This document shows, one piece after another, positions 713-56,219 of a DNA stretch of 64,000 bases. The notes under the pieces were generated by a model that was given only the letters and a program-made list of their open reading frames with translations, did not search any database and was not told where the DNA came from. This DNA comes from Paraspadella gotoi (Eukaryota > Animalia > Chaetognatha), in assembly GCA_051294375.1 (NCBI GenBank), contig CM119267.1, positions 6,472,367-6,536,366 on the forward strand. The letters run 5' to 3'. The position numbers and the translations under genes were made by a program. Position 1 is the first letter of the stretch; each line of letters begins with the position of its first letter.

Positions 713-2648
713 GTGGCCGACGTCAGCCCCAAACGACGCCTGCCGACCATCAAATTCCACAAGAATAACAACAACAACAACTACGAAAACATTGTTTCAA
801 ACGAAGTCGCCGCTGCTGATTTCGCCGTTTTTCTCCTCTCTTCTCCGTTCGTCTCTGATTTCAAAACGAAAAAAACAAAANNNNNNNNNNNNNNNNNNNN
901 NNNNNNNNNNNNNNNNNNNNNNNNNNNNNNNNNNNNNNNNNNNNNNNNNNNNNNNNNNNNNNNNNNNNNNNNNNNNNNNNNNNNNNNNNNNNNNNNNNNN
1001 NNNNNNNNNNNNNNNNNNNNNNNNNNNNNNNNNNNNNNNNNNNNNNNNNNNNNNNNNNNNNNNNNNNNNNNNNNNNNNNNNNNNNNNNNNNNNNNNNNNN
1101 NNNNNNNNNNNNNNNNNNNNNNNNNNNNNNNNNNNNNNNNNNNNNNNNNNNNNNNNNNNNNNNNNNNNNNNNNNNNNNNNNNNNNNNNNNNNNNNNNNNN
1201 NNNNNNNNNNNNNNNNNNNNNNNNNNNNNNNNNNNNNNNNNNNNNNNNNNNNNNNNNNNNNNNNNNNNNNNNNNNNNNNNNNNNNNNNNNNNNNNNNNNN
1301 NNNNNNNNNNNNNNNNNNNNNNNNNNNNNNNNNNNNNNNNNNNNNNNNNNNNNNNNNNNNNNNNNNNNNNNNNNNNNNNNNNNNNNNNNNNNNNNNNNNN
1401 NNNNNNNNNNNNAGTCAGCTAACGTGATCGAAACTACAGAGGCACAAACACTATTTGAGGAAAATGTAGCCAAAAAAAATATAAAATAAAATATTACAAC
1501 AATAACAGACACTTTTTTAGCCTAAATAAGGGCCACTGCCCTATTTTAAACTTTGTTTAAACTCTATAACCAGATTTTCTTTTTTTTTTTCTAAAAAAAA
1601 AAGAGCCATATATTCGGTTAATCATAAATTCAAACTTTAAACAAGAAAACAAACATTTTAATCTCCCTAGTCGCGACGCATCAACATTTTTAGAATTTGT
1701 TTATCTTTGTTTCTTTCCTTTTTATCAGAATATGATTGCTCCCCGATGATGAATTTTGAACGCCCCAGTTTTATTCACTGGGGGGGGAGGGAGGCCGAAC
1801 GGGTGGAGTTCGAAAGGTCGAAGGAGTGGGTTGGATGAAAGGGAAAGGGTGGGGGTAATGGAGTTTGGAAGAAGTGGGTGGCGAAGTCGGTCGACGACGA
1901 ATACGGGTCATGCGGCGTTTCCACATTCGCGTCACCGGGCGTCGCTCCCCCGCTGCTCCACTTTTCGAGCCGCTCCAGAAAGATCCCCTCTCCTTTCCTT
2001 CTCGTATTTTTTTTCCCCCAGTAAGACGAGGGACCGCGCCTCGGTTCTCGCTCCCACTAGATGCGATCAATCTTTTCCGATTTAACTTACTAATTACTTT
2101 CTTCGTTGTCATCTTCGCAATTCAGATTTTTCTGCTCCAGTTACATAACGATTTTTTTTTTATTCCGCCCCCCTCCCCCTCTTCGAATTCTTTCTTTTTT
2201 TCTTCGGGGAGCGAATTTATTTGGAGTTTATCTTCGATTCATCCTTTCACCTTTGGCTCCAGACGAACCCCCTTATCTTTCACTCGGCTGCTTCGGTCTA
2301 TAAATAAAACTGCGTCTTCAGTCTCTTTCTTCGGATTTTTTTTTTTGTTGCGAAATTTTATTTGTTTTTTTTTTAAATTCGTTCGTTTATTCATTCATTC
2401 ATTCTTTCAATTATTTTAATTTGTTAAATCATTCGATTATTCATTCGTCTGTCCATTCATCCTTAATCATTCTATAAAACGGATTTCAATTGATAAAATA
2501 ATTCATTTATCTATTCTCATTACGAAACAAGCAATTCATTATTTCAAATTTTGAGATATTTATCAATTCATTGATTTCTTCATTCGTTCATTCATTCGCT
2601 CTTCTTTATCTAAGAATTTTATCACATTTCGCTTTTTCTCTCTTCTCC

Positions 2649-2697
<49 letters not shown>

Positions 2698-4144
2698 GCC
2701 TACACTTTTTCTTCAAGATTTTGGCTAATTTTTTTTTTAAATATTCCTTTCAAGAAGTAAAGAAAAAGTAAAATTTTCAAGAACAAAAGGAAAAAAACAC
2801 GACAGAAACGTTTTGTTTCTTTCTTATCTATCATTTTTGTTTTATTTTTTTATATATAATTTGTGTTTCTTTTTTTCAAGGTTTTTTTTAGTTTTCTTAT
2901 CAAATAATTCCAAATTCCGTGTTTTATTTTTCGGCACTTCCGCCCTCACAGATTTTTGTCCAATGTCGAAGCCTCTCCCATGCTTCTCCTCTCCCATGCT
3001 TTTCCTTCTTTACCATGCTCCTATGACTCTAACTTTACCAGCCATGTCCCGTCTCCAACACTACGGCGACCTGCACCACATCGCCTCCAGCGGGGCCTTC
3101 TTACTTTTTGACTCTCAATTGATTTCAGATTTAGCTCCGCGGCCAATGGATGTATTAACCGTACTTAAATGTCCTCTGTACTATCTACTCGGTACATTAT
3201 CATGCTCCAAATCGCCAGCGCAGTTGGCGAGAAACGCCTGTTTTATTCTTTTTTTTTCTCTCTTTATTTATTTCTAATTATCGAAGCAAATATAAAACCT
3301 AAAAAAAAAAACCACCTTTGCGAATCCCGATGTATCCTCCTCACTAGGCCCCCCATGCTCGTCCTCACCGATCGCGTCTAGTCTTCGACCTTCGACCCAC
3401 CCGTCGCCCCCCCAGGCATCTGGCGTCTCTGCTCGTGGGGAGCTCATATATCTCATCAGGTACTCATCTACTCCTCTTTCTCTTTCGTCTCTCTCTCATG
3501 GTGCTCTCTTCTTCTCTCTTTTTTTTTTTTTTCCTCGAGGCGTCGATTCCTTCCAATCTCAAGATCTCCCCTCCCTAAAAAAAGTTTTAATTAATTCCGA
3601 AGATAAACTAATTTTTGGCGATCATTAATTTTAGATTCGCGCCTCTAGTCTCTTCACGAACCCCGCAACTGTTTTTTTTTTCTTCCTTCGCTTCGCCTTT
3701 TCAGATTTTTTGTAAACTTCTTTTTTTTTTTTGGCTAAAATTTGAAGAAAGAAACCAACGTTTTTTCCGTTTCATATTCTTTTCATTTTCACTTTTTTTT
3801 TATCAATTTTTCGCTGAGATGCCAAACTTTTTGTTCTTTCTTTCTTTATCTCTCTCTCTCTCTCTCTCTCTCTCTTTCGAACGGACTTTTGGACGCCGCA
3901 ACAAAACTTCTTTTGTCTCAACGATTGACGTTTAATTCTTTCTTCGTCTTCTTCTTCCTCCTCCTCCTCCTCCTCCTCCACGTATCTCTCGCTCTTCTTC
4001 CATCTTCCTCTTCCTCCTCCCTCCCTCCCTTCCTCCTCCTCTTCATCCTTCACTTTGTTTTATTTCACTCGTCGTGTTTATTCTTGATTCGGCTCCAAAT
4101 CATAACCGAAAAAGATAAACTTTTTTCGATTCATCTCGAATTTT

Positions 4145-4194
<50 letters not shown>

Positions 4195-4745
4195 CCTCCC
4201 TCCCTCCCACCATGCCTTTAAAAATATTTAAAACTGATTTTTGTCTGAAAAAAGAAAGAAACAAAAAACTAATATTTTTCTTCGAATTTGAAAATCAAAA
4301 CAAAGCTCAGTCGTCGCGAGATATTTTTTCTTTTTAAAAAAAAATTCAATGTTTCTCTTTCTTGATTTTTTTAATATTTCGAGTCTGAATTTAATTTCAT
4401 CGGGATTCCACGATGTAATTTCAGAAAGAAAAAAAATATATTAACCAATAACCATATCATCGAAAATAACCCCAAAAAAAAAGGTTTTCTTAATCTAGTC
4501 TTCTTTTTTTATTTTCAGACGAACGAAATTCTCATCCCCCCCACCAAAAAAAAAAAGACACAACGAAAAAAAAAACGAAGAATGACCGCAGCTTTTTCTT
4601 CCCCTATCGGCGAAACAAGGAGTCTTCGTTCGCCCTAAATAACGAGAGAACAAGGATTACCATTTAAAAAAAAACAACAGAAAACCGCGACTAAATGTGT
4701 TGAGAATTTCCGCGCGAAAAAAAATCTTGGCTTTCGTCCTTCGTT

Positions 4746-7700
4746 ATGGCGTCGCTTCGAAGTTTGTGCGTCGTCGTCTCCGTCGTCGTCGTTCTTAGTC
4801 ACGTGACTTATTCCTCCTCCTCCTCCTCCTCCTGCAATCCGACGCTTCCTCTTCCCGCGTCCGTCCGCGTGGCGCAGACGGCGCCGCCCTCATCCGGCGC
4901 CGCTCCCGACGTCTACATCGGCGGCGTCTTCGCCGTCCACGAGAAGACGGCGTGGCGACATTTTCTGTGCAAGGGCGCCGTGGACCCGCAGGCCGTCCAG
5001 CGGTTGGAGGCGTTTCTCTGGGCCGTGGAGACGCTGGGGACGAGGTGAGAAGACTGTGAAAGGGAAAGATAAGAGCGTTGAACTCAAATTCTCGAAGAAT
5101 CACTGAATCTGTCAACGTCTCCTGTTTGTGACTTGTTTAATAAAAAATAAAACAAATAAAAACCGCTCATCAAAAGAAGCTGGGACTGGATAAAAGGGAA
5201 CGGTGCGATGTGAATAAATGGTTTTAATGTCTTTGGTTGCTTAAATCAAAGCCGTTCTTTTGTCGAGTTTCACTGGTTCTTGCATCTTTAACAATGCTGT
5301 TTGTGTTGTCTTTCAATTTATTAATATAATTTTATATAATAATATGAATAATATAATATAATAATATAATATAATATTATAATCATTTTAAAAAGCATAA
5401 CCCCAATTGACTCAACTTTTCTCCAGGTACCGCAACGACCCTCGACTCATGGACCTTACCTTCGGCGCCATCGCGATCGACTCGTGTTCCGACAGCGATC
5501 ACGTGACCCAACTCTTGTCCGACTACGAATCCTGTCATCGTCGATTCGTCTCTTCTTCGCTTCCGGTGAGATTATGGGACGTGAAATGGCATTATCACTC
5601 GCGAAATGGCATTATGACTTACCAAATGGCATTATGACTTACGAAATGATATTTTGACTTACGAAATGATATTTTGACTTACGAAATTGCATTGCTATGA
5701 CTTACGAAATGGCATTAGGACTTACGAAATGGCAGTTTGACTTCTTAAATGGCATTATGTCTTAGTGTCTTACGGAATGACATGATAAAAGCATGCTGAA
5801 AAGCGGTCGAGTGGTCCCCTCGTTTTCAACCTCTCAAGTAACTTACTCTCTCAAAATAAACTAACCTTTATTTTTCTCACCTCCTCACTCCTCAGTCCTC
5901 CACGCCCTCGGCCGACCCGCGCCGCACTCTGGCCTACGTGGGTCTCGTCGACGACGACGCCGCCGTCCGCGCCGGCGCCTTTCTCGGCCACGTCCACAAA
6001 CCGGCGCTCTCCGTCGGCGCCACCGTCAACGTCCTCGTCGACGACGATCGATTCCCCAACGTCTACAGGATGATGCCGTCCGACAACGAGCAGGTGTGGT
6101 TTGGAGGAAGAGTTTGGGGGGAGAGTGGGAGGTGGAAGAAGGGAAATTAGAGATGGTTGGGGAAGCAGGGAAGAAGGGTGAGGGAGGGAGGAGGAATGAT
6201 GAGAGGAAGATAGATGGGGATAGGAGGAAGATGGGATAGGATAGGAAGATAGGAGGAATATAAGAGAAGGATAGGAATATAAGAGAAGGATAGGATAAGA
6301 TAGGAAGATCGAAAGATAGGAAAATAGGAGGAAGATAGATGGGGATAGTAGGAAGATAGGAGCTGGATAAGAAGATAGGAGGAAGATATATGGGGATGGT
6401 ACTACTATTAGTAGGAAGATAGAAGCAGGATAAGAAGATAGATATAAAAAAACAGGATTGGGAGAAAGTTTGAGATTCGCGGAAATTGGCGAAGGGGCGA
6501 AAAGTCGGGGTTGGGGGGGGCGATATTATTTTAAAATGAGGAAAGAGAGCGAATGTTGTGGTTTGGAAGTATTCACGATGGTTACGATTCGCGTCATTTT
6601 ATTTAATTTATTTTTTAATCGCATATCGATTTTGTGGCCTTCGTTGATGTCTAAAGAGAGAATGTTTGTGGTTTCCGTTTTTTCTGCGGTTTTATTTCAT
6701 TAACGTTTTATTCTGCGGTACAACTCAGTTTTCCGATTGACTATTATCGTCGTCGTTGTTATCGTTCCTCTTTTTCAGGCCCATCTCCTCGTCGAACTCC
6801 TCAAAGGCCTCCGCCCACCGTCCTCCTCCTCCTGGTGGAACTACGTCCACATCGTCTCCACCGACGACCTCGTGGGCGAGAGCGCCACCGAGTCCTTCCT
6901 CCTCCACGCCTCGGAAGAGGGCGTGGTTGTGGCGACGACGCAATCCGCGCCTCCTTCTGCTTCGGACGACGACTTGGATCTCGTCGTCAACAAGTTGAAG
7001 ACGAATCGAGAGGCGAGGGCGGTCGTCGTCTTGGCCAAGCAGGGGACGGCGGCGCCGGGGAATCCAGGTGATGGAAACAGCCGAGAATGCCTAGAGAGAA
7101 TATATGTAGTAGTTTTGATTCAAACGGAAAGGTTTTTCAAAATTTAATTTTTGAGCGCCTTTTAGACATAGTTCAGTATGATATTCACTTTTTAATACTT
7201 TTTATTCTACTTTGAATCATTTCTACCTGTACATTCGCCAGCTGAACATTGACAGACCTTTTTTCAAAATTCAAAATTTCAAGAAACTTTTTTTTATTAC
7301 CAAATCGGCCGTATTTTCGCAGTGTCCCATTTCAACTTAATTACCGAATTAAGTTAGTTTCATTTACACCTTGGTATTCCGGCGGAATTTTTCACACAGA
7401 AAGGAGTCAACTTTAAAATTATCTCTTAACATCGATCCTAACCTCCCGATTCTCCCGATTACCTTACCTTGCCCCCACATTGCTCCACCCTCTTACAGGC
7501 TCCGGTTTCTGCACCCGTCTCCTCCGCGCCGCCCATCGTCAACGGGTCGGGCCCGACTTCACCTTCATCTTCGGCTCCGGATGCGGCCACATCCACCTGG
7601 AGGCCCTCCACGGGCCCGTCAACTCGGAGGCCTTGGGATCTCTGGGACTCGTGTACGACGAAGGGGCTCTCCCCGCCTTCCAGGCTCACTACCGGAGTCT

Positions 7701-10700
7701 TCGCCCGTCGACGCGAAAGCGAATCCTTGGTTCGGAGAATTTTGGGAGCAGACTTTGGGTGCCGCTTGGTGGGCGTGGCACATCCAAGAAACGAGTCGGG
7801 TGAGTTTGAAAATGAGGGACAGAGTGTGAAGAAGATTCCATGGGGGGTTTCTCAGTTTCAGATGAGAACATTGTTTGAGCAGTGCTTAATCTCGACTTAA
7901 TATTAACTCAATCCATATATCAAAAGATAAAAATAGAATAATAACTTTATTAAGTATTCAATATCCAATAATCATTCAAAAACGTGCATCAGAATGACAG
8001 AGCCAAAATGCAGCAGCAGCAGTAGAGCCGATACGCAGCAACAACAGAACCGAGACGCAGCATCAGCAGCAGCAGAGCCGAGACGCAGCAACAGCTCAAA
8101 GCTACATAAAAGCTTAAAATTAATTACCATATTCAAATAATTTCACAAATATCATTTAATACCTGATGGTCTCAGAGGAATCTCCCAAAAATTAAGAATT
8201 TACTCTCCTTTTATATACAAGGCACAATTATTACAACCAATGAGAGGAGAATTCACATTTTAAGAATAAGATCAAAACATCTACTAGTTATTATTAAACC
8301 AATGAGAGACCAGATATTCAAATTCAAGGTGTAAAATTCAACCAATTAGAGACATTAAACAGAACTATTGGAGTCATTCAATTAAACTTTAAACTCAGAT
8401 ATTTGAACCATTAAAAAATAAAAGGTCAGGGCTCAATTCAGATAAAAATCTTTATAAACTCTTTAACAGAGTGTAAGGTTAGATTAGAAAATGAAGGCCG
8501 GAGCGAATCGGCTCTTGGGCTGTGGACTTTCACTGTTAAAGACTTTTTCCTTAAAATAAATCAAAAGCGGAATTAAAGACTCGTTTCAATTTGAATTGTA
8601 AATTTTTTAGAAACAAGTTGTGATGATAGTGAACTTTGAATTAAACAACATTCGCGACATCAAGTTTTAGCAACGAGAGAAAAGAAGATTTGAAAACGAA
8701 AGTTTTTAGTATTTTTAGGAGTTTAACGAAAAATTCGCTTTTGAACAACAATTTATTAAGTTAATAAGGACATGTTTCGACTCTATGTTTCGAGTCTTCA
8801 TCAGCAAGTGAAAATATCAGAGTCACAGATCAAATACAAAGTATTTTTTAGCAACGAGAGAATAACTTATTAATTGATCTGCGACGACCAAAATTTCACA
8901 TTCATATTTTGAATAAGACGAAACAGTGACAACTAACAAGGATCGAAGTTATTTCTTCATTCAGCTGATTGACCTTTTAGAACCATAACAAAGCAAAGAT
9001 ATTTTTTGTCATTATATTACGTCGTATATTTGACTACTGCAATACGAAAATGACAATTAGCCAAAATGTGAGTTTATGAGTTATTGCATGCGATGCCTCT
9101 TGAGCAGGGCATCGTACCGTCTTTGAAGAGTGAGTATTTGGGCGGAACGAACGATGAAAGCTACGAGATACTAAGAAAAAAAATATGCATTATATAAAAT
9201 CAAAGATGCAAACGGACTGTAAAACGGAGCTCATTAAAATTAATGAAAAATTAGTCAATTATTTAAAAAGAATTGAAATGAATTAAAAATCGGTCAGGTG
9301 GAAGTAAAACAGAAAAAAGAAAAATTCGTCATCTAAACTTCGTCCTCAATAAATTTCCTCCCTCAGGCACCCACTCGGCCCCAGCCGCCCCTTGCGACAT
9401 CTCCGACCAATACCTAACGCCGACCCTCTTCCGCCAAGACCCCTTCGTTCCAGCGACGGTCGCCGCCGTCGACGCCGCCGCCTTCGCCGCCGCCGACGCC
9501 GTACGCCGACTCTGTCGCGGCGTCGGCGGCGCCCTCTGCCCCGAAGCGCTCGAGCGGACGGAGGAATTGAAGAGTCTGGTCGCGAAAAAGTTGAAGGAGG
9601 TCGTCGACGAGAGAGCGAAGACGAAGGGCGGGGATGTGTTGAAGGTCGTCAACTTTCAGATGGAGCAAAACAAACACAGGATAAAAAAGGTCAGTTGTTT
9701 TGGTTTTTGTTTTTGCTATGTTTTTTATTGCTTGTTGTTTTTAATGTGACCAGCATGAGTTACGTAACAATTCGTTCACTTAATTTGACAAAAATATTAA
9801 TAAATCAATCAATATTACAATGCCCGTCATCGTCCACCTCCCCTTTCCCCTCAAATAGATCGCCCAGTTTCGTTCCGGCGTCCTCCATTGGATCCCCGAG
9901 GCCTCTCTTCAACTCTACGACTCAGACGGCGCCCCTCGGTCCTACCTTCCCTCGGAGTGCCGCGACGCCGCCTGCGCCGCAGTCGACGGAGGCTCCAGCG
10001 GTTCGTCGACTCTGGAGGAAATCCTCGAGCGCAACCTCGTCGGGGGAGACCTCTGGATCGGAGGAGTGGCGTTGAGAGGGGAGGTGAGTTTTTGGGGTGG
10101 CTTTAAATGGCTAAAGATGGCTAAAGATGGCTAAAGATGGCCATTTAACCAATAACCATACCATAATAACTAGTCTACAGGCACTGCCTTCTTGCCTTAG
10201 TCAACTCTTCAATTTAGTACTACGGTGTCTCCCCTATATAACGAATCGAACAATAACAAAAAGAGCAACTCGAAAACCACAACAATAACCACAACAAACT
10301 CCTTTCCCCCCCCTCTCCTCGACCACAGCTGTGGGTCCTCGTCCTCGCGGGTCTCGCCGCCCTCGGACTCCTCGTCGTCATCTTCATCGAACTCTTCCTC
10401 GTCTGTCGACTCTCCCGTCCGCCTTCCTGCTGCGACGTCGCTCCGCCGCTGCGTCAGGAGCCGCCGGCGCCGCGTTGCTGCGGCGCAGCTCTGGTGCTAG
10501 GCCACGCCCTCCTGGCCGGCATCGCCCTGGTGTTCGGCGTCGACTTGGCGCTCCTGCTGCGTCCGTCTCAGGGGGCGTGTCTCGTCTTCGAGTTCGGATT
10601 CGCCGTCGGGATCGTCGTCTGCTTCGCCGTCGTCCTCGTCAAATTGGGTGAGTAGGTTCGGAACGACCGTGTCCTGTCCGGAACGTTGGAGGTTCGAGGT

Positions 10701-13674
10701 TCGAGGTGTCTCGATGTTAGAGCTTGTTAAGTGGGGGGAAAGTTCGACATGGGTATTATTTATTAAGGCACGACTGTCCAACGTATCCGTAGGACATCCT
10801 TATGACTTCCGTGTGGAGAGAATTGAATTCTCTTCAAAAAGTTTTCTTTCTGACATTGAATCGTGACCAATTAACCAATGATATTTATTTCCCCCTTTTT
10901 TTCGTCAGTGATAATCATTTCTTGGAAATCGTCGTCATCGTCGTCGTCGTCGTCGTCGTCGATCCTGTCTCCGATCTTTCAGTCTCTTCTCTTCTTCTTC
11001 GCCGTCGGAATCCAAATCGTCGTCTCAGTCATGAGATTCGTCTACGCCGCCGCCCCGGCCATGAAGGTTGGTTGGTTGATTGGTTGATTAGCGGGTTCAT
11101 CGACGTGATTGACTGATCTTGCTAAGTGATGGGTAGATTGGTTAGGGAGGAGTCAATTACCAATCAGTAATTGGTCGTGGGAACGTCGGTGATTGATAAA
11201 TAATGGTTTAAATGATTGGTCGAACGATTTTTAAGTTTCGATTGTTTGATTGATAAATTGAAATATTTTGGGTGACGGATATTGTAATTTGGAAAGCATT
11301 TTTTTAAGCTTAAACAATTGAATAGTGAATTCAAATTTCTTCCTTAATTCTATAAGTAATATATTGTGGCGGTATATTCACACCGCCTCACGTCCACCAT
11401 CTTTCAGCCAAATCCATTGGCTCAGAGGGGGAACACACCATCCCAGGCGTAGTGTTCCATCCACAGTCCTAATGACTTCCCTCTGCGTTGGCAAAGCGAG
11501 ACCGTCCTAGGGTAACCGCGCCAGTGACTGGAGGCGTCACTGAGGGTCGGAAGCCCCCAAAGCCAACAGTGAGATGCCCCATCCCAATGGGCATCACAGG
11601 CAACCCGGCTGTTGCCATAATATCATGATTTAAAATAAAATTTTGACTCAATTGATTACCTCGATCTTTTTTTTTTCACCAGGATCGATTGTGGAGTTGG
11701 CATCCGTCGTCTTCGTCGTCCACTTGTCGATTCGACTTCACGGAATTCGCGACGGCTCACGCTTACGTGATGCTCTTGGTTCTGCTCTGTTTTGTTCTCT
11801 CTCTCTATGCGTTTAGAATAGGTGAGTATTGAGAAAAAGAAAGGAAAAGAAAAGAAAAGAAAAGAAAAGAAAAGAAAAGAAAAGAAAAGAAAAGAAAAGA
11901 AAAGAAAAGAAAAGAAAAGACACATCTCAATTTTCACAATATGACGCCCGCCCTTTTCCCCAGAATACAACTACCGCGAATCGGCCTTCATCGCGGCCAC
12001 ATCCGGCCTCAGCGTGGCCGTCTGGGCTGCGTTGGTGGGCGGAGGATTCGCCACCGACAGCCCGCTCGTCCGCGAGGCTTTGATGGGCTACGCGCTGCTG
12101 ACGGAAGGGCTGCTGTTGCTGGGCATCATGGTTCTGCCGAAACTGTGTCGATTGTCGACGCTGCTGTCGTCGGCGCGGCGGCGCCGACGGAAGCGACACG
12201 AGGCGGCGACGGCTGCCGCTGCTGCGGCGGAGAGATTCGACGACGAACTTCCGTCCATTTACGGTCGAATTTCCGGCAGAGGAGCGGAGAGAACCACGTC
12301 GCTGTCCCACGCCGGTGAGGGAAATTGAAATTGAAATAGAAATAAGAATATAAATCCAATTCGGAAGGCAAGATGACATATATGTACTAATTTAAATATA
12401 TATACGAATTAGCGATTTTTAATTTGGTCGTGTCAATTTCATAATTAGCATGTTTTAACCATTTATCATTGCTCAGTGCTCAGCCTTTTCCCTCTTTTTC
12501 TCCCTTCCTCCCCCAACAGCCTACCATCATCCCAACTCCCTCTACGACGCCGTCCTCATTCCCCCAATCCCCTCCTCTTCCTCCTCCTCCCACCACTCCC
12601 TCCATTTCAAAACCCCCTCCCTCCCCCACCTCCTTCCCCGCACGGCGCCGCGATGGGCGTCTCTCGGCGCCGGATTTCCGCGACATCGCACCAACGCTTC
12701 GTCGGCGGCGTCAGACGCGCCGGAGCCGCGGTCCTCGTCGCGGCAGCAGCTCGTGGAGGAGGGCGAGTTCGAGATTCCCAGATCGGGTGAGGAATCGGGA
12801 AGCGGGAAAGGTTGGGGTGGGATTAACTTGCGATTGGTAAGAGGGGGAAAAAAGGAATGTTTTATAAAAATGACAAAAATAGATTATAAATAGAAAAGTG
12901 TGGGGGACAGGCCGGCAACTGGTTCAATTGTAATTTTGTTATGTGGCGAATTTTGTTTTCTTGGTTTGAAATATATGAATTGACTTGACTTTCTATAGGA
13001 CTTGATATGAATCGACTTGTCTTGACTTTTTATATACTTGATGTGACTTGACTTGACCTGTCTTGCTATAGACCCGACGAGATCGATAACAACACAAGTC
13101 ATAAAATTAAATTTACAATTGAATCTGTGAACAAAGTTGGAAATGTTAAAATTATGACGGAGTTTTTAAGTCCTTCCTCCAAAGTCGGCTTCAAATTTAG
13201 TCCAGACATATTTAAGCCTCACACGCTATGTTTTTTTTTAATCGCCCTCTATTTTATGTGGTTTGTCGTTCGTTTTGTGGTCTCTTCTGTGGATTACTAT
13301 TAATTAGATATAAGTTTTTAATTATTGTCTCTCATCGATGATTCATTGACTCATCAATGATCTCGTTTGCTTCTTTTAATTTTCGTTGTCTTTAAAATAA
13401 TTGTAATCATTAGACTCGTTGTCTGATTTTTATTGAAATTGAAACATTTAGTGTCTTTTTTTTCTCTCTTTCTTTTTTTGAGTTGAATTAAATGAGTTTT
13501 TTTTTTTTTTTTGATGAGTCCAATTTCTGATGACCGACGCCAAAGCGATGATTCATTCGAAAAAATGATTCAACTTTTGTATTCAGAACAAAAAAAAACA
13601 GATTATCACATCCTGAGGGGAAGAGATTTTAATCGTTTTTTTGAATCCGCGTTATCTGTACATCATTGAATAGC

Positions 13675-14239: not shown

Positions 14240-17200
14240 CTCTCTCTCCCTCTCTCCCCCCGTCGTTCTTTATTCATTTCTCCTTAACCGATTTTTTTTT
14301 TCCTGTTCCTCAAACACTTTTTTAATGGAATAATCTAAGGAGCAAATAGGGCTCTTCACTCCTTTTCGCCGCCTCTCGCCTTATTTTCGCGTGCTTTTCA
14401 CTTTCTCTGCAGGAACGGTCTCGGCCTTAACAACCTTCTAAAAAAAAGTACAGTCTGTTCAGTTCGAAACGTTATTAAAGACTAAAATGTGATAAACGAG
14501 AATGAACGACCTCCAGAGAGATTGCAGTAAACGGGGAAGAAGTACGTTCACAGATAAAAAAAAACAAAGCATCATCATTGAATCTGAAACTACGTTAAAC
14601 TTTAATACCCTGATACGGAGAAAGAGCTTTTTTTGCTTTAAAGTTTAAACCGCTCCCCCTGTCTCACAATGCGCAAAGTCGCGCGCGAAGAAAGGAGTCG
14701 ATTGTTTGCTTTAATCCCAGAGTCGCCTCTCCAGTTCCTCCTCCTCCTCCTCCTCCTCCTGTTCCCTCTCTCTCTCCTCCAGGGGATGTTTGCGGATCGT
14801 TAGGGAAAAAATGCGCCCACTTATGGGTGGCATAAAAAGAGCAGAAGTAAAAAAAAAAAAAAAAAAAATAGAAAAATCGATAAGGACGATCAAGTCGGGA
14901 AATTTTTACGAGGGGAAATTCCTTTAAAACTTTTGATAAAACTCATTGAAACGATGGAGTCACTGCCTAAACTGAGAACCGACGGTCTATTATTTTAGGG
15001 ATTAATTTAACGTACTAACTTATATTGTATATCATTAATGCGAATTCGCGATAATCATAAATAGCTGGCCATGAAAAATGATCCTGTCAAAAAGATCGAA
15101 GGTCTTTTAATAAAACCGCACTGATTCACGCGAAAAAAAAAGGGTTATTTATTAATTGTATATGTTGTAAAATGTATTGTACATTAGACATCCCCAGTAT
15201 AAAAAAATCGTCTCCAAAGTTCTCACTCGGGTCGGTTTCCCGTTATTTATAAACTTTAAATAGGTTTTAACTCAAATCTGGAAAAAAAATGTTACCGCGT
15301 ATCAACCCAATGAAGCGTCAAAGTCAATTGGCGCAAAACTCGTGTTGTGAAATTTTTTTTCCCCATAAAATCTAATGATTTTTCCCTTTTGCTAATTTTT
15401 TACTAAAAAAGTGGCTTGTAACTCTTCAAAACTAAGGTAACTATTTATAGAGTTTATTTTGTAAAACAGGACATCTGTGTCAACCGGAAGTAAGGTCCAA
15501 ATAACCGGAAGTAAGTCCAAAAAAACCGGAAGTAGTGTTAAAATAACCTTTAATAAAATAAACGAATAAAAATGATAAAATTTTGGACAAAGGCAATTGA
15601 AAGAAGTGAATATGACTGCAACTCAGGGAGTAGGGAGATACAGTACAATAAATATTATGCAAGGTAAAAGAGAGAGAGAGAGAGACAAAGGGAGAGAGAG
15701 AAAAAGCGAGCGATATAGTTTGTCAACAAAGAGCTGGAAAAGGACAGTTGCTAGAGGTGAAAACAGCTTAAGTTAAGGACAGGAAAAATGGAGAGAAAGT
15801 GAAGGAAAATGAAATAAAGTCATTTAAAATGTAAGCGAAAAATATTTGGATATTTTTAAATTGAATAATGTATAACAATAATAAATTTAATGACTAAAAT
15901 TAAATTATCAATTTAAAAATCTAAAATATTGGAAATGAAACTATGAAATAGTGAAACAGATAGAGAGGATACAATAAGTGAAAAGAAAGTAAAAATTTAA
16001 GATACAAAAAGAGCTCAAAATATAGCTGCCCCCTCGTAGGATAATGGAAAGGCATTGCCGGTTTGGATGAGTCATTGACTGTGAGGAAAGTGATATCTAG
16101 TTGGTTCTGTTTGGATCAGGGAGAAATCCTTTGGGGAAAATGTCTACTCAAATGTCCATTGAGCCTGCTCTACCTGAGAAGAGCCCTCTTCTTACCTGAT
16201 GTTACTTCAGCAGAGGTTGACCTTAATTCACACCACTTAAAGATCTCTCCTTTTTCAGTTCTTTTTGCCATTCTCTCTCTCTCTCTCTCCTCTAAAGAAA
16301 GCCAGAAGCAAATTCGAGTGAGAAGAAATATTTATCTTGCCCTGTTTTTGACGCCGGTCATTTTGGAACACTATTTTTGTAATTTTGTAACAGGATTTTT
16401 AGTTATTTTCGAATCACTTCTGGTTTAACTTTTCTCCTCTGAAAACCGTATTTTTTACAACTTAATATTGCCATGATTTTTTATCATGTTTGGACCATTT
16501 AGGGAATTCAACTTGTTCTTAAAGTTCTTATAGTCAGTCTTGTCAAAACCTCTATTTGGACCGGCGAACACACTAAAACGCCCAGGCACGCAAAGCATGG
16601 AGACTCAACTTTTTTAATGATTAAAAAAAGTTAGAGTATCAAGGTCCTTCGGCATCGTCCCTCCCTCACGCCACGATTAAACGATTTTGTTTTATTATTG
16701 TAAAACAGACCTGTTTTGGCTTTATTTCAAGCCTTCAACAGCGTTAATGTGAATTTGGAACATATTTTGTGTATTAACTCATCTCTCAAAATCTATCCTT
16801 TCAAATTTCTATTTCACTCTCACTAATTATTTAGTAGATTAATTGTTAAATTTCACTAATATCTATCAGTTTAAAACTTTATTATTATGATTATTGTTAT
16901 ACATTGCACAATGTAAAGATTTTTTCACTGTTTCTCTCTCTCTCTCTCTCTTTTTCACCATTTCACTTCTTTTCACAACTTACTCTGTCTGTCCTCTGTG
17001 TTGGAAACTTTGCCCTCTCTCTCTCTGTGTTTATATCTCTTTCTCTCTTCCTTTAGTAAAGGCTTTACACAAAACATTTTCTAAATTCACATTAACGTTA
17101 ATGAAGGCTTGAAATAAAGCCGAAACATGTCTGTTTTACAATAATAAAACAAAATCGTTGTCAAATCCAAATTCAAACTTTCTGTAAAATCGCATTTAAA

Positions 17201-28790: not shown

Positions 28791-29927
28791 AATTTTCTTC
28801 TCCACAAATATAACTTTTCTACACTTGAATAAAAAAGTGCCATTTACTTTTAATTTTGTTTTAAGTTGTATTTCATTCTGAAATATGTTTCTATTTTGCT
28901 GTTGCTTTTTACAAAATTTTGATTAAACTAAAGAAATTACTGTAAACTTTATATTAGATAGTCAAATCCAGCTAGTTTTTATTTTACATGTCGCTATTAA
29001 ATTCGAAAATTTTCTCTGGATCTAAAAATCACGCTTTTTAATCATAAAAGATTTAAAGGAAATATAAGTTTGCTAATAATGGAGCAGGAAAAAAATATAA
29101 CAGAAAAAGAGCAATGGAATTTTTTTTGTATAGCATTGTTGCCTTCAAAAGAAGGCATACTCGCATACTCGGTTATTTTTAGGCAAATAATTGTAAGATG
29201 CAAAAACTAACTAAAATGAAAAGCTCCAAGTTATAGCTGAATGAAGACTTTCCTCATCATCGTTCGCACCGACGAGAAATTGGACGAAGGCAATCTCTAG
29301 GAGGCCCCGATGAGAAGGGGGCCTGTCTTATGCTGGTTCGGGGCCGCACAGACTCGACTCGGCTCGATTCAGCAGCCAGACTGTGAATCATGGTCGCGCC
29401 CTGCCTTTCATAACCATTCCTACGAACAATCCTTCCAAGCAGTCGCAAGCTGTCCAAGGTTCCCACGCCCGACCGTCGTCGGAAGAGAAAAATTGATCTC
29501 TGCTTGGTTTCCTTCTTGGTCTTTAAGAACCAGAGGGTTTTAAACTGATTGCTGTTGCGACAAATGTTTATTCATCTTGCATGCAACGTCGCCAATTCGT
29601 CGTTTTTAATTTTAAATACCCTTTCTCTACTTCATTGAAACATGGTTATTTAGTAGAAAAAGCGATTCACCTTTAAGATAATGACAGTGATGTACCTGTT
29701 CGAAGATATTCCAAATTCTTAAAACCTTGTGTGTTCCTCTTGCGCATCTCTTCTCCATTCGCATTCTACTATGTTAGCAAAATAAAGATTTTGCCCTCTA
29801 TTTGGGTTCTATCCTGGCTTCCCTAATTTTCTTTTAGTTTTACGTTCGAAACAATTTGCTATGTATTATTATATTTTGTAGGAACCAAATTATTTTAAAA
29901 ATAGCAATTATGTCCTTACAGGTTAAA

Positions 29928-32573
29928 ATGTCCGAAGAAACAGAAGAAGCTAACGACGTGAATAATGATATAAACAAGTCGGATAACGATGGGAAGGAAG
30001 ATCTGTCCCTCGTCATGACCGAAGAACAAATCAATAATGAAGAAACCGAGGCTATTGTCGTTGATCAGAGCAGTTCCTTAGAGGGGGAAAAGCACAATGA
30101 CGAGCACTATGGAGAGAACATTAGCAAGTGTGAAGAGGGTGAAGTAATTGACTTAGAGGGGGAAAAGCACAATGACGAGCACTATGGAGAGAAAATTAGC
30201 AAGTCTGAAGAGGGTGAAGTAATTGAGCTCCGTGCCTCGGCTAACCATGCTTCACCTGCGACCCTATATGCGATTCCTGAAGATATGATGGCTTCTATGT
30301 GCGAGGCTTGGGATCGCAACCCAAATTATTACTGCACGATATGTGAGATTGAATGCGCCACTCACGCCGCTTACAAAAAGCATATCATTGGCGCAAAACA
30401 TAAGAAAAAGGAGGAGAATCCAGCTGCGCAGTTTCTTAAAGGCGGCGAAGATCAAACCACCGCAGTTGAAGTGAACTTAAAGTTGTTGGCCAAACCTGTC
30501 GTCGGGTTAGAATTCATTAAAGAATTTTATCTCGAAGAAGAATTAGTCTACAAATGTTATTTGTGTGAATTGACAACTTTGAACACTTACAATATTGGCG
30601 CTCATTTAATCTCTAACAAACATCGCCGAAAGTTTTTTCAAACGAAACACCGGGATATATGGTCTAAAATAACTGCCGGAGGAAAAAGGAAAGCATCTGT
30701 CAATTGTGAATATTATGCAAGATTTATTGAAGAGACGGAAGGAAGGAAACGCATTGTTCGTTATGATGAAGAAATGACTGAGAACATCGTTTCATTAGAT
30801 GATACGGATTCATTTTTTGATGATGGGCCTCCGCCGAGAATCGACGATGACGGCGTGCGACATTGCAACATTTGCGATATTGACTGCAACTCGGAAAGCA
30901 GTTGGAGATATCACGTTAATGGAGCCAAGCATAAAAAGAAGACAGCAGAGTTTGTGCCAGCAATTCGAAATTTCGATTTCTTGACTGATTCACTGGAGGA
31001 GAGGTTTAAATCTAGTAAAGAGTCTTTAATCGGACTGGAATACGTTGAAGAGTTTCACTTCACCGATCCGACTCACAATGAAGTTCGATACAAATGCCAC
31101 CTTTGCAACATTAGTACCTTAACTTGCGACTCTATCGAAAACCACATAATTAGCAACAGGCATCGACGCCGATACGTGAAGTTGCTTCATTCGGATTTAC
31201 ATAACCAAATTTTGCAAGCGGGTCGCAAAAATTATCAGCAAAAGGTCGTGACGAAAGGGATAGCTGACTTAATCGAGGAACGTTTCGGTCGAAAACGAAT
31301 CGTTAGAATGACGGAGCGTTTGCCTCCGCATATCGTCGAAGCACAAATGATCATAAGGAATTGGAATGATGATTTCATCTCTGGTGTCAGTGACTCTACT
31401 TCAATGCCGCATAATTTAAGCTTTATGGAAGGCTACAACTCCTGCAGCCGTTCTTTGGATACAACGCAATTGAGCGAATCCGAGCTATCGATGAGATCCA
31501 ATGGCAATTTTGATCCACTGAGACGAAGTCCAGATCATCGACGACGCAGTCCAGCTGATCATCGCTCTTGGCGGGATCGTAGCCCTGATTACAACCGACG
31601 CAGCCCCGACGGTCGACGCCGTCGAACCTCAGGCGATCGAAATCGTCGCCACGGAGACGAGAGGCGAAGACGGAGCCCTATACTCAGCCGAGAAGAACTT
31701 CGTCGAATGAGAGACGACAGAGATCGTCTTCGAGTGGAATTAGCGATGTTGAAAGAAGCAAGGCGCGAAGAAGATCGTATCGCCTCTGTCGCCGAAAGAA
31801 CGATTATGACACCAATGGGGGAAATGTTCGAACGTCACGTTTTAAAACATTCCGATCCTTTGCTCCAAAACTCACCACCGTCGTTGCGCTCTATGGCTTA
31901 CGCTCCGTTTGCTCCTCCGTCAACGTCTTCCTCCGCCGCGACTGCCAATTCTTCGAGAGTAGAGAACTTCTCGCCTCCGCAACCGCATGAGCAAGAGCGA
32001 TTCGGGTCTCAAACGTACGAAGAAGGAACGGAGACGCTTGTACCGCCTTTGCAATCTATCGAAGCATTTTGTGATCCAGCCATCAAGGACAGAGATCCCT
32101 GGACCGAAGCGTCTTCTTTACTCAAACGATTCGCCGAGGTTATGTTTTCTATAAAAATATCTCCGTGGCCGCCGAACAGCTTCAGCGACATCGCCAAAGA
32201 CTCTCTTCGTCAAGCTGAATTCGGATGGACTTTCGAGATGGACTCTGACAACACGCAGGTTTATTTGATGGCCGAAGGCGTTCGGTTGTCCTGTGGCATG
32301 GCCTCAATCAGTGAAGTCGCAAAAAACCAAGCCTTTCAAATCTTTGTAGAAAAGTCCCGAGTTTCTGATTATCTCATTTTGGAAGAAATTGGGATGAGCA
32401 GACATTTGCGCATGTTTAGGTCAACTGTGACTGCGCCGCCTGGAGCATTTCGTTACGATCTTCAATGCAAAACTAGGACAGTTGTTTGTTCTCGCATCCC
32501 TCGGTGTCAGTTTTGCAGAGAATCTGGACACATCGAACAATTTTGTTCCGCGAAAACACTCAGCTTTCGATGA
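29928..32573 (+). CDS. Intronless multi-zinc-finger protein (four U1/matrin-type C2H2 fingers, RS/RD-rich region, C-terminal CCHC knuckle)
   Basis: 905-codon ORF; likely ATG at 29928 after an acceptor TTACAG. Motifs YCTICEIEC..HIIGAKHKKK, YKCYLCE..HLISNKHRRK, HCNICDIDC..HVNGAKHKKK, YKCHLCN..HIISNRHRRR, RRRSP repeats and CQFCRESGHIEQFC. Confidence 0.88.
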   Translation: MSEETEEANDVNNDINKSDNDGKEDLSLVMTEEQINNEETEAIVVDQSSSLEGEKHNDEHYGENISKCEEGEVIDLEGEKHNDEHYGEKISKSEEGEVIELRASANHASPATLYAIPEDMMASMCEAWDRNPNYYCTICEIECATHAAYKKHIIGAKHKKKEENPAAQFLKGGEDQTTAVEVNLKLLAKPVVGLEFIKEFYLEEELVYKCYLCELTTLNTYNIGAHLISNKHRRKFFQTKHRDIWSKITAGGKRKASVNCEYYARFIEETEGRKRIVRYDEEMTENIVSLDDTDSFFDDGPPPRIDDDGVRHCNICDIDCNSESSWRYHVNGAKHKKKTAEFVPAIRNFDFLTDSLEERFKSSKESLIGLEYVEEFHFTDPTHNEVRYKCHLCNISTLTCDSIENHIISNRHRRRYVKLLHSDLHNQILQAGRKNYQQKVVTKGIADLIEERFGRKRIVRMTERLPPHIVEAQMIIRNWNDDFISGVSDSTSMPHNLSFMEGYNSCSRSLDTTQLSESELSMRSNGNFDPLRRSPDHRRRSPADHRSWRDRSPDYNRRSPDGRRRRTSGDRNRRHGDERRRRSPILSREELRRMRDDRDRLRVELAMLKEARREEDRIASVAERTIMTPMGEMFERHVLKHSDPLLQNSPPSLRSMAYAPFAPPSTSSSAATANSSRVENFSPPQPHEQERFGSQTYEEGTETLVPPLQSIEAFCDPAIKDRDPWTEASSLLKRFAEVMFSIKISPWPPNSFSDIAKDSLRQAEFGWTFEMDSDNTQVYLMAEGVRLSCGMASISEVAKNQAFQIFVEKSRVSDYLILEEIGMSRHLRMFRSTVTAPPGAFRYDLQCKTRTVVCSRIPRCQFCRESGHIEQFCSAKTLSFR
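30077..30226 (+). repeat. In-frame 75-bp tandem duplication in the zinc-finger gene
   Basis: LEGEKHNDEHYGE(N/K)ISK(C/S)EEGEVI occurs twice; units start at 30077 and 30152. Confidence 0.95.
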
Positions 32574-33000
32574 AAAATCATTGGGTCACTGTTTATTTTA
32601 CTTTAACCGTTAATTTAAATTTCTATATCCACGCTCCTGATACATACATACATACATACTCACATACATACATACATACATCAATTTCATAAGTTTGATT
32701 CTAATTCGCGTTTATTTTTAATTTGTTATAACTTGTGACCAAAAAATAGTTCTTGTTGATAATATTTTTAATAGTGAATTAGCTTTTATATTTAATCGTC
32801 GAAGGGTTTACCTTTTTTCAGTTTTGTCTAGTCTATTTTAGAGACCTATTTATCACTGAAAACTGTTAAGTATATTATATTCAAACGTTTGACAAACAAT
32901 TATTAAGAGTTTCGATGATAAACAAAATTATTTTTGTCTTTCAAATTTACTTAAGGTTTAGAAATTAAAATTATATTTCGTCCATATGCAGGATTAGAAA

Positions 33001-39000: not shown

Positions 39001-39368
39001 TCCCTCCAAACTCTCCATCGAGGAGCAACAATCGGGGCGGCGGAGGCGGGGCAAGTGGTGGTGGCGCCAATGGGGCCGCCAGCATCGCCTCCGTCGTCGC
39101 TAATCGGCGGAAGCAACGCAAGAAGAACAAGACGACCGACGACGCCGCCTCCATCGACGATATCTTCCTTCCCAAGGATGACAACGAGCTGGAGCTGAAC
39201 GACCTCGACGAATTCGAGAGGGAGTTGGAGACCTTCAAACGGTTCTGCGCCAACTCCACTCCGGCCGTCAAGAAGGAAAAGGTCAACTTTAATCTTAAGG
39301 ACATTTTCGTCGGACAGAATTCGGGCAAAAGCGGTGGCGGAAGCGGAGGAGGGACGCGCGACCTTTAA
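33001..39368 (+). CDS. FAM193A: FAM193 family protein
   Basis: Exons 33001-36267, 37180-37264 (GC donor) and 37405-39368. Motifs YCDCCYCELFGHN..TSKNFHEMRDRLRLRL, DVDTLVKFING followed by a charged coiled coil, and C-terminal IDDIFLPKD..LDEFERELETFKRFC. Confidence 0.88.
36783..36820 (-). ncRNA. 5'-truncated minimal hammerhead motif (Penelope-like remnant) in FAM193 intron 1
   Basis: Minus strand reads (T)TGATGA-A-GACTTG-taaaa-CAAGCC-GAAA-CAT-GTC-TGTT, abutting a long A/T run. Confidence 0.65.
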
Positions 39369-49676: not shown

Positions 49677-50375
49677 CTACAGAAGGCTTCATATTATAAA
49701 ATGTGGTACCCCTTTTTTGTGACCAGAATCTGTTCCCACCAAACTACCTGATCAAATTTAATTAAATTTTACATTTAGAGCGCTAATGACTATATAAATG
49801 GAACTATCGAGGGGAATTTTGATATTCAACCCCTGACAAGAGATACAGGGCCCTGGGGGTGGACCCCTGGGGGACCAAAAAATTTTAAAATTTTTTTTTC
49901 ATTTTTCAAAATTTTTTAGTAGCATCAGGTGCATTGGTATTTTAAACATAAGAAAAAACATTTTATAACTAAAATTGATAAATTTGCCATAATTAAGCAT
50001 GGTTGAAGATGCATGGTTCATCGTTTTACTTCCAATTTTCCCAAATTATTCCAAATCTGACTAACTGCTGATATTCATAAAGCTAAAAATTAAGGTAAAT
50101 GAATATTTTTGAGGTAATAAATACGTTTTTGTGGAAGAGTAAACGTCTGTGCAACTGTTCAAAACAAAAATAAAAAAAAAATAAATGGATGACCCCGGGG
50201 GGCCCATATCTCGGCTCAGCGGTCAAATATTGAAATTCGCCTCGATAGTTATATTTGTATTCACATAGGGATCGTTCATTCCAAATTTCAATAAATTTGG
50301 TCCAGTAGTTTTCTCGGAACAAGTTCTAGTCACAAAAGAGGGGTATCTCATTTTATAATATGAAGACTTCTATAG
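49677..50375. mobile_element. MITE/foldback element with ~180-bp diverged terminal inverted repeats
   Basis: CTACAGAAGGCTTCATATTATAAAATG..TTTTGTGACCAGAA mirrors 50316-50375; AACTATCGAGGGGAATTT..GGGCCCTGGGGG (49802-49859) mirrors ~50192-50250. Confidence 0.8.
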
Positions 50376-51176: not shown

Positions 51177-51270
51177 ACGAATTGATTTGTAAAAAAATAT
51201 TTTTACAGACTTTGAAGTTTAAAGAGAAAGAAAGAATCAGTGAAAATATTTGTTTTATAAATCAATTAAT

Positions 51271-53812: not shown

Positions 53813-56219
53813 TTATGTGTTGACGTTTGTTCTTTTTCTTACTTCGCTGCTGCTGCTGCTAGGTGCGACGGCGGTGTCGGCGTCATTAGGTTGAGAGTCG
53901 GCGGCTTCTTCTAAAAAAAAGGGGAAGGGAATACTCAGCTCAGCCGAAATAAAAAAAATAGGAGCTCGGCGTTTAATATATTATCAATTCGCTTACCAGT
54001 CTTTGCTTTCTTTCGCTTTTCATAAAGTAAAGTTCCGAGGCCTAGAATTAGCACCTGAAAAAGGAAACGGTTGAAAGGGAAACGCAATCGGCGACATAAA
54101 CATCGCTATTGACATTCCCTCACCTCAATCACAATGCCAATGGCGGGCCAAAGGGCGGCGTATCTGCCCTTGACTCGCAACAGCATGGCTCGGCTTCCCC
54201 GGAGTTGTCCCTCCATTTTGTCCGCGACGCGGACTTTGCAAGTATAGCGGAAACGATCATCCTTCGTGACGCCATCTGGTAGATAGAGATGAGCTAGAGA
54301 GAGGGAAGCCAAATAAAAAAGGCAGAGGCGTACTGGGATCGATGAGCTCGTAGGAGGACTTCCAGACGTCGTCGTGGCCGGCGCCGGGGCTGTCGATTTG
54401 GCGCCACCTAGAGGCGTTTCCCGTTTCTTTGGCGCCTTCCACCTCCGGCGTGATCGACCAAGAAAATTCGGGTTTCGCACCTTCGATTAGACGAATGTGA
54501 CTTACATGGTTAATACCTAACTAAACGGATTTCAAATCGGAGTGAAATGAAAAGTTTTGTTATTACTCTCTACTGACTTAATGAAATTGGTACAACCAAT
54601 ATAATATGATTGATATTTGATAATTTCATTAGCTAAAAAATTCCCTGACGTTAATGTTCCTAAGAAAGTTGCAAATTGAGAATATGTTTATTTTTTTACA
54701 ACTGGTGCGCTTGCCTTACAGCAGCTTTTTTTGTAGAATTTTTCCCCTCTTGATTGAAAATTTAATTTCAAACTCATTATGAAAAAAAATTGAGACGAAT
54801 ATTACAATATTTAGTATTATATCTAGGGAGCATGAAAATATATTCTCATTAATATATTTTAAGGTTTAGTGAGGTAACAGGCTCTTTCCAGATGATTGTT
54901 TTAGAAAAACTATAAAATGTCATTGTGGCTGTGAAAAAGTTTTTGACATTCTGATTGCTCAGACACATACTTTAATGTCGATATTTGTAAAATGAACCTA
55001 AATTTTTTAACATTTTTTTTTTCATAAAAATATACATTAGAACAGTAAGGTGCTATTCAAATGCAAAAATTATCTTTTTTTAAAATTCGACCATGGCATA
55101 AATGAGCACTTAACTAAAAAAACTACTGGGAGTTAAAAAAGAAAAAAAAACACTATAATGAATAATTTCGCCACAGTATTCGATCTTTTCATTTCACTCA
55201 AATTTGAAATCCGCGTAATTTATACCATATAGAGACAGAAACTAAATCCCATTCTTCTATCATCAAGAACCTTCGGAAACGACGAAGGCTTCGCACTCAA
55301 ATTTGACGGCCTCGCCCTCGTTGACCGTGTACGAATCGCGGTGATTCTCTTTATCGTCCAGGATCGCCAGACGCCGAATGAATGGCGGACCTGGACGAGG
55401 GAGAAAAGATCACGAGGACTCCTCAGACTCCTCAGACTCAGAAAGCAGAGTTTTCTCTCGGAGAGGTTCCAGGTTTCTCCTTAGTAAGGAGTCCTTACCC
55501 TTAACGATGTAGGTATTGTCCTTGCAAGTCCACGTGCCAAGGTAATACTGAAACGGGGCTTCTTGATGCAACTTGATAGAAAGAGAGTAGACCTCGTTGC
55601 CCAAATCGTTTTTTTCCTTGATGATTTTGAGGGGGGCGTCGGGATCGTCCGCTTCTGAGATTTCCGAGATCAAAGGACGTGATGAGGGGTAAAGAGAAAT
55701 TTTTTTTTTATATGGCAACAGCCGGGTTGCCTGTGATGCCCATTGGGTTGGCTTTGGGGGCTTCCGACCCTAAGTGACGCCTCCAGTCACTGGCGCGGTT
55801 ACCCTAGGACGGTCTCGCTTTGGCAACGCAGAGGGAAGTCGTTAGGACTATAGATAGAAAACTACGCCTGGGATGGTGTGTTCCCCCTCTGAACCAATAG
55901 ATTTGGCTGAAGGATGGTGGACGTGAGGCGGTGTGAATATACCGCCACATTTACTTCTTTTACTGGACGAATCTTACCGGAGTGCCGCTCGATGTCGAAC
56001 AATTCTCCGTTGGGCTTGTGGTGGATCCAGTTATTATCTTCGCATCTGACAAGAAAATTAAGCGATTTAGGCTTTGAAAGTTCTACAAAAATATTAAATA
56101 AGTACTTACTTCATCGGCGAAGAGGAGGAGTTCAGCAAGAGAATGTATTCGACGCAGGAGACATAAAACGGCAAAATTGCGAGAAAAGCGGCGGAAAAGA
56201 GTTTCTTTGAAGGCGACAT
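53813..56219 (-). CDS. Bsg: Basigin/neuroplastin (CD147) family two-Ig-domain membrane protein
   Basis: Exons 56219-56110, 56045-55978, 55654-55499, 55390-55271, 54480-54334, 54275-54124, 54054-53997 and 53910-53813 join in phase. Signal peptide, two Ig cysteine pairs, diagnostic TM with intramembrane Glu (LRVKGRYAALWPAIGIVIEVLILGLGTLLYEKRKK) and tail EVRKRTNVNT. Confidence 0.9.
55711..55949 (-). mobile_element. 239-bp LTR-like element with 4-bp TSD carrying a twister ribozyme (copy 2)
   Basis: Reverse complement of 11365-11619 with a 16-nt deletion and scattered substitutions; flanked by TTTA (55707-55710 and 55950-55953). Confidence 0.9.
55747..55827 (-). ncRNA. Twister ribozyme, type P5 permutation (copy 2)
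   Basis: Same 81 nt as 11487-11567 except one mismatch in P5 and one at the base of P3. Predicted cleavage between 55801 and 55800. Confidence 0.8.

Follow-up and report, generated by a model that had tools for sequence, protein, structure and literature searches.

We analysed a 64,000-nt stretch of the genome of the chaetognath Paraspadella gotoi (assembly GCA_051294375.1, contig CM119267.1, positions 6,472,367 to 6,536,366, forward strand), referred to here as the window, with positions counted from its first letter. It holds two dispersed copies of a short non-coding repeat, 255 nt long in copy A, which carries a twister-type ribozyme fold between the fixed ends of a mobile element. Copy A sits, in the sense direction, within an intron of a multi-exon class C G-protein-coupled receptor (GPCR)-like gene (7353-11822, + strand), whose exon at 10329-10646, upstream of the copy, matches 7tm_3 with an E value of 7.6e-4, below the Pfam cut-off. 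Copy B, on the minus strand, appears to lie in a predicted intron, also in sense orientation. The copies, their flanks and their host introns are as follows.

11365..11619, + strand: element copy A, likely a solo long terminal repeat (LTR); 255 nt, TG..TA ends; contig depth rises sharply at 11365 and drops at 11619
11361..11364, + strand: left 4-bp target duplication of copy A (ATAT)
11620..11623, + strand: right 4-bp target duplication of copy A (ATAT)
11368..11387, + strand: predicted 5' terminal hairpin
11573..11616, + strand: two 3' hairpins (11573-95 and 11599-616), the first partly deleted in copy B
11067..11682, + strand: host intron of copy A, sense orientation, class C GPCR-like gene; GT/AG ends, in-frame flanking exons
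55711..55949, - strand: element copy B, 239 nt; more decayed, in the A and B boxes, one P5 pair and one P3 pair and by a 16-nt deletion
55707..55710, - strand: 3' 4-bp target duplication of copy B (TAAA, element strand)
55950..55953, - strand: 5' 4-bp target duplication of copy B (TAAA, element strand)
55655..55977, - strand: predicted host intron of copy B, sense orientation, minus-strand gene; GT/AG ends, from sequence alone

Copies, ends and abundance of the repeat

The two copies are 89.8% alike when the 16-nt deletion of copy B is included, and BLAST found no third copy within the window. Both start with TGTGGC and end with GCCATA, and each is flanked by its own 4-bp target-site duplication (TSD): ATAT for copy A, and TAAA on the element strand for copy B, which reads TTTA on the plus strand. 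A preliminary description of this DNA, made from its letters, had reported exactly these termini and duplications. The chance of equal local 4-mers at the flanks is 0.008-0.011 for copy A and 0.005-0.006 for copy B; the 4-bp TSD that serves as a criterion for Helenus elements is found at 2/2 copies. Two further claims of that description, the absence of an open reading frame (ORF) and the wealth of hairpins, are borne out: there is no real ORF in the element (its longest stop-free frame spans 65 codons, and a single frame of 49 aa starts with ATG) and its fold beats those of 200/200 shuffles (z -3.3). The element has a GC content of 58%, against 23-24% in its flanks.

Evidence on further copies comes from contigs of public sequencing runs, six of the 16 listed runs having been examined. 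Part of the element is present in 12/16 listed runs, from five studies. In the DNA run X1, 9068 contigs lie on the element, and summed contig depth, which is not a copy number, rises from 210 to 1.6-2.8 million exactly across 11365-11619. Loose contig ends cluster at 11361-65 and 11619-23, giving at least 133 left and at least 201 right junction contigs, whose AT-rich flanks differ from one another. The family has hundreds of insertions and likely thousands; it is abundant and has probably been mobile recently. The site of copy A appears to have both empty and filled alleles. A 517-nt X1 contig matches 10975-11360 exactly, ends its match before the element and continues for 94 letters, and its depth equals that of the right flank (209.9); the empty allele is implied by this contig and the shared depth, not by a printed joint. 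The filled junction is spanned by a contig of run X9 (11038-11389) with zero differences.

Run X9, only guessed to be RNA, has a depth of 38-135 on the host exons and of 4-17 in the intron. Its element-to-intron depth ratio (~2,500-8,700) is not above that of the DNA run X1 (~7,600-12,400), and contigs cannot reveal RNA ends, strand or level, for which reason its 3'-heavy profile was given no weight. None of the runs that hold the element is listed as RNA, which counts neither for nor against expression. Run X13 has no contig on the locus and X15 has an exon piece alone, neither of which proves absence. When aligned to 11365-11621, run X10, which bears a different organism label (organism B), holds a near-identical copy with 2 differences in 192 nt, and the biofilm metagenome X11 holds related copies with a shorter P3 loop; these could reflect a close relative, a mixed sample or transfer.

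The twister-type fold

The internal 81 nt of copy A contain the parts of a twister ribozyme in the P5-opened order, placed as follows.

11487..11567, + strand: predicted P5-type twister with P3 hairpin, copy A
11487-92/11562-67, + strand: P5
11496-99/11516-19, + strand: P2, with one C.A mismatch (C11516.A11499)
11500 and 11501, + strand: G and A before T1
11502-04/11548-50, + strand: T1 pseudoknot
11505..11512, + strand: position of P1; 2-bp stem with a palindromic tetraloop, a self-complementary 8-mer whose predicted pairing partner is a second copy
11513-15, + strand: UAA
11513..11514, + strand: predicted cleavage site U|A, position per the twister consensus table in PMC8501958
11520-21/11553-54, + strand: T2 pseudoknot
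11522-28/11536-42, + strand: P3
11544-46/11555-57, + strand: P4
11547-54, + strand: L4, U-NNN-AA-GC motif
55747..55827, - strand: copy B's twister fold, with the same catalytic residues, T1, T2, P2 and P4 as copy A

Set against the element table of PMC8501958, every core part is present in 11487-11567. Both pseudoknots (3 bp in T1, 2 bp in T2) are all Watson-Crick in both copies, and the L4 motif is closed by P4. P2, where a 4-bp helix is expected, has three pairs and one C.A, at which no variant is listed. The UAA, T1, T2, L4, P3, P4 and P5 thus lie where the preliminary description had put them, and the P2 mismatch it had pointed out is indeed C11516.A11499. What it overlooked is that P1 is nearly absent and palindromic.

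To see how often such a core arises by chance, we used a P5-type descriptor that allows one P2 mismatch. It matches both copies and nothing else in the 64 kb, with a single match in 100,000 dinucleotide shuffles, well beyond chance; a relaxed descriptor gave no further match in the window. A chance likeness in a GC-rich, hairpin-rich repeat would fit the want of a curated covariance-model match and the tolerance of one P2 mismatch by the descriptor, but the shuffles and the clean window make it very improbable. No hammerhead core was found near either copy. Viral contigs gave 0 matches to the family pattern, and a looser pattern gave four, all failing T1; metagenome contigs gave five pattern matches, none of which shows any further likeness to the element. 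As a sequence pattern the twister fold is real; ribozyme activity is predicted from it and is unproven. As background, ~94% of tested natural twister candidates were active, in a set of type-P1 only (McKinley et al. 2024, PMC11662667), and type-P1 twisters tolerate flaws in P1 and P2 but not changes in pseudoknots or catalytic residues (PMC11662667).

Variation among copies was taken from the unphased contig tables of run X1, in which the copies are related and not independent and 17 further low-share rows lie beyond those counted. Variants at 3% or more fall on 0/65 paired or catalytic positions, 4/16 loop positions and 14/122 upstream positions (Fisher p = 0.001 for core vs loops and 0.003 for core vs upstream).

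The place of P1 is taken by the 8-mer at 11505-12, whose hairpin is unfavourable (+2.7 kcal/mol) and whose self-duplex (-11.0 kcal/mol) is the strongest among the 248 8-mers of the element. The P1 helix expected of a twister is not formed within one copy (monomer pairing probability 0); only two copies together could form an 8-bp duplex. In X1, two adjacent central transversions in the palindrome have frequencies of 2.2% and 3.2%, and a single decayed contig, aligned by eye, appears to bear both, with the palindrome kept; a third variant (2.4%) breaks it. In a nested model the monomer folds 10.1 kcal/mol better with the cleavage site and the T1 strand both buried, and a strand-swapped dimer lowers this penalty to 5.0 kcal/mol per ribozyme, with pseudoknots uncounted. 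Amphibian hammerheads with a palindromic tetraloop act as dimers (PMC7229834). The reduction of P1 to a palindrome suggests that two LTRs could be cut as a pair.

Probable LTR identity and a proposed life cycle

Is the repeat an LTR? A single contig of run X10 follows the element to 11620 and then reads TGG two bases past its end, continuing with 11/13 of the first letters of a tRNA-Trp primer site (Kojima Fig S2, PMC10886601). Upstream of 11365, the majority letters are rich in purines and have a common end in X1 and X9, as expected from a shared polypurine tract (PPT), though agreement is low (only 0.40 and 0.47). Inside the element are two tRNA-like boxes.

11418..11429, + strand: tRNA-like A box (TRGCY..GG), motif from Kojima 2024; changed in copy B
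11454..11462, + strand: tRNA-like B box (GTTC.A..C), 24 nt past the A box, a spacing ~8 nt shorter than that of a tRNA; copy B has it in decayed form

The combined A and B box pattern occurs in 420/100,000 shuffles, ARAGORN makes no tRNA call in the element, and a run of four T is absent from copy A. [quoted passage not shown] From the one PBS-like contig, the PPT-like letters and the likeness to Helenus, the repeat is most likely an LTR. The preliminary description had called it the solo LTR of a mobile element, and its fixed ends, its 4-bp TSDs, the PBS-like contig and the PPT-like letters speak for that; it had overlooked the tRNA-like A/B boxes, by which animal Helenus TRIMs (Kojima 2024) become relatives as close as the plant retrozymes it had named.

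The repeat might instead be no LTR at all: a DNA transposon resembling a miniature inverted-repeat transposable element (MITE) with short imperfect inverted ends, or a tRNA-headed short interspersed element (SINE) with a twister. The ends are 5/6 complementary, each copy in the window is a lone unit, and assembly recovered no internal region. Yet the complementarity does not extend past 6 nt, an A-tail is missing, both sites have a 4-bp TSD, the tRNA boxes lie 53 nt inside the element and not at its 5' end, and one contig has a PBS-like sequence past the 3' end, all of which leaves this alternative quite improbable.

Our preferred reading, to which we give a probability of about one half, is that the 255-nt repeat is the solo LTR of a small non-coding Helenus-type TRIM, in which the twister-type fold would cut the transcript once per LTR and so release a unit-length RNA that is circularised and copied by a Gypsy-type helper. 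It builds on the observed ends, 4-bp duplications and many flanks, and on the observed twister core residues and pseudoknot pairs. Transcription by RNA polymerase III (Pol III) would start near 11411, as suggested by the A/B boxes, and would read through the LTR, since copy A has no run of four T. The two LTRs of one transcript are predicted to pair via the palindrome at 11505-12, to provide each other with P1 and to be cut at U11513|A11514. A lone copy would be mostly in the blocked fold, which would spare host introns that carry sense-oriented copies. A doubly cut RNA would lack a terminal repeat for strand transfer, so that ligation into a circle would be needed (the argument of PMC4918200). 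By analogy with plant retrozymes, the circle could then be primed by tRNA-Trp, reverse-transcribed and integrated with a 4-bp duplication by a Gypsy element.

The same geometry allows for an active twister with another task. If only the 3' LTR were cut, the ribozyme would be a 3'-end former that replaces a T-run terminator, giving a linear RNA with R at ~11411-11513, ordinary strand transfer and no circle. This layout is the normal U3-R-U5 one, copy A has no run of four T, and many published animal Helenus LTRs have, by eye, a T-rich tract just past the B box (PMC10886601). Against it, the two LTRs would be identical and a symmetric dimer offers both sites, and the plant LTR retrozymes are cut by both of their ribozymes and build up circles (PMC4918200). 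We regard 3'-end formation as unlikely, although it deserves to be kept in view.

Several results weigh against the reading as a self-cutting retrozyme-like element. No Rfam family reached its gathering score in the window. The preliminary description had proposed the Rfam twister-P5 model as a check, and the search, in which clan filtering would hide a weaker P5 match, never listed it; the best score was for twister-P1, 15.9 bits vs a cut-off of 67.2, and copy B had no twister match at E 10. Other weak Rfam matches (mir-1994, opuB, JPX_2, SNORD53 and AsdA) were put down to chance. The nested model, which leaves pseudoknots uncounted, gives P2 and P4 a pairing probability of at most 0.04. At the 1.5% level, decay by C>T and G>A reaches the core (6/65 positions vs 17/122 upstream, p 0.48), and the 3' 52 nt of the element are equally invariant. 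Covariation of T1, P2, P3 and P5, another check proposed earlier, did not appear: among the X1 contig variants of this one young family there is conservation only, with no compensatory change in T1, T2, P2, P3 or P5. P1 is dispensable in other twisters (PMC11662667), so a dimer may not be needed. As for the LTR, the PBS-like sequence comes from one contig, of depth 6 and with a different organism label. The Pol III boxes are atypical, with short spacing, one mismatch per box vs the Kojima motifs and loss in copy B, and their p value (~0.004) is post hoc and comes with no ARAGORN hit. Neither a two-LTR copy nor a helper element was seen in the 64-kb window and the run contigs, the contig tables giving 30 loose letters, and Pfam found no retroelement domain in six long ORFs of the window.

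Many of these points would be expected if the repeat were a Helenus-like solo LTR with a twister fold that is either an inactive relic or purely structural, for instance captured from an RTE element or a SINE and now blocked. The Rfam score far under its cut-off, the fixed C.A in P2, the 2-bp P1, an alternative fold better by ~10 kcal/mol in the nested model and the lack of covariation all agree with it. But no common variant touches the catalytic G and A or either pseudoknot, all of which are intact, most tested natural twister candidates cleaved with flaws in P1 and P2 included (the ~94% of PMC11662667), and a hammerhead, as read by eye, occupies the same slot in two Helenus LTRs of wasps. 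On balance, a dead or structural fold seems rather improbable to us.

The wasp case concerns Helenus-2_SyJa-LTR and Helenus-2_SyUm-LTR (PMC10886601 DataS1), in which the sequence directly behind the tRNA part looks by eye like a type III hammerhead, with its three helices plus a 12-nt loop-loop complement. It goes unremarked in the parts of PMC10886601 covered here, where the word 'twister' occurs 0 times and 'ribozyme' only in the title of a reference. That one slot holds two classes of ribozyme argues for cleavage as its function. A wider and clearly more tentative extension of the circle-based reading is that LTR retrozymes driven by Pol III exist in animals in their own right, as a Helenus lineage primed by tRNA-Trp whose ribozyme slot is exchangeable (a hammerhead in gall wasps, a twister in this element). 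The present twister would then be a natural obligate dimer, active only when both LTRs of a full-length transcript meet, releasing a replicating circle while solo copies in introns stay harmless. In the Kojima supplement (PMC10886601), six twister loop 10-mers gave 0 occurrences and no twister was seen by eye in the animal LTRs of parts 5-9, where line breaks could hide a match. Nor did that supplement bear out the idea that the twisters known from zebrafish or Nasonia lie in the Helenus LTRs of those species.

Other features of the window and comparison with known systems

The rest of the window holds genes and further repeats. A FAM193-family gene lies at 32998-39368 (+) and a lethal(2) giant larvae gene at ~41100-44700 (+); a 40-residue piece of the latter (43550-43669) has 71-92% identity to lethal(2) giant larvae of arthropods, molluscs and deuterostomes among the best 120 of 167 matches. 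A single open frame of 911 codons (29838-32573, +) encodes C2H2 fingers of the double-stranded-RNA-binding type and a C-terminal CCHC-like knuckle, and has a 25-residue internal duplication at 30077-30226. There are three MITE-like units with terminal inverted repeats of 94-185 nt (16680-17159, 49676-50376 and 50773-51671), diverged AT-rich dispersed repeats of 72-76% identity (25635-25998/26804-27246, 27904-28222/62588-62891 and 15178-15324/18197-18346), a perfect 53-bp palindrome with a 4-nt spacer (47728-47837) and a tandem 20-nt minisatellite (5573-5784).

Our literature search, in which most subscription journals and bioRxiv supplements lay outside coverage, found no prior description of a twister in an LTR. 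What it did find, in the sources as far as they were covered, were RTE-type non-LTR elements with twisters, plant LTRs and animal tandem repeats with hammerheads, and Helenus elements without ribozymes. Twisters are widespread, and the only retroelement role for them that we found in print is the 5' processing of RTE-type non-LTR elements. If the present fold cuts, circle-based LTR retrotransposition would reach animals and a second ribozyme class, some Helenus families would be retrozymes, and the twister would gain a new, dimer-dependent mode.

As we read it, the element combines two known kinds, the Helenus TRIM and the LTR retrozyme; ribozyme-bearing LTRs of this design have up to now been reported from plants, where the ribozyme is another one. 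With the Helenus TRIMs (TRIMp3; Kojima 2024, PMC10886601), and especially with Helenus-2_SyJa and Helenus-2_SyUm of Synergus wasps, it has in common a non-coding LTR of similar size (theirs 277 nt), a TG start and a 4-bp TSD and, as candidate features on its side, tRNA-like A/B boxes and a tRNA-Trp-type PBS. Those two families also have a ribozyme-like motif behind the tRNA part and no T-run, as here; their motif is like a type III hammerhead, whereas the element has a twister. Compared with Helenus, its boxes are more degenerate and closer together, it ends in TA, and no full-length copy of it was seen.

Plant LTR retrozymes (Cervera et al. 2016, PMC4918200; review PMC7761336) have, like the element, a ribozyme inside an LTR of ~250-400 nt, a 4-bp TSD, solo LTRs, a blocked ribozyme conformation and a predicted loss of R after double cleavage. 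They differ in their hosts, in their type III hammerhead, in a tRNA-Met PBS and in that no tRNA-like boxes are described for them in these sources; circles were shown there and are a prediction for the element. An LTR retrozyme is defined by a hammerhead in each LTR. With a twister instead, the element would act like a retrozyme without being one by the original definition.

With known twisters (Rfam RF03160; PMC11662667) it shares the UAA site, the GA before T1, both pseudoknots, the L4 motif, P3, P4 and, apart from its one C.A, P2. It differs from them in being opened at P5, in its long P3 and in its stunted palindromic P1, and the tolerance data cover type-P1 forms only. The twister variants at the 5' ends of Perere-3/RTE elements (Liu et al. 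2021, PMC8501958) also serve a retrotransposon and also have a weak P1, but they belong to coding non-LTR elements with no LTR, have a P1-type fold completed by the target site and make a single 5' cut. Finally, the animal non-LTR retrozymes with dimer-dependent hammerheads (PMC7229834; bioRxiv 10.64898/2026.07.22.740005) resemble the element in their animal hosts and in a weak helix whose palindromic tetraloop acts as a dimer, and differ from it as Penelope-linked tandem repeats without LTR, PBS or PPT that carry a type I hammerhead.

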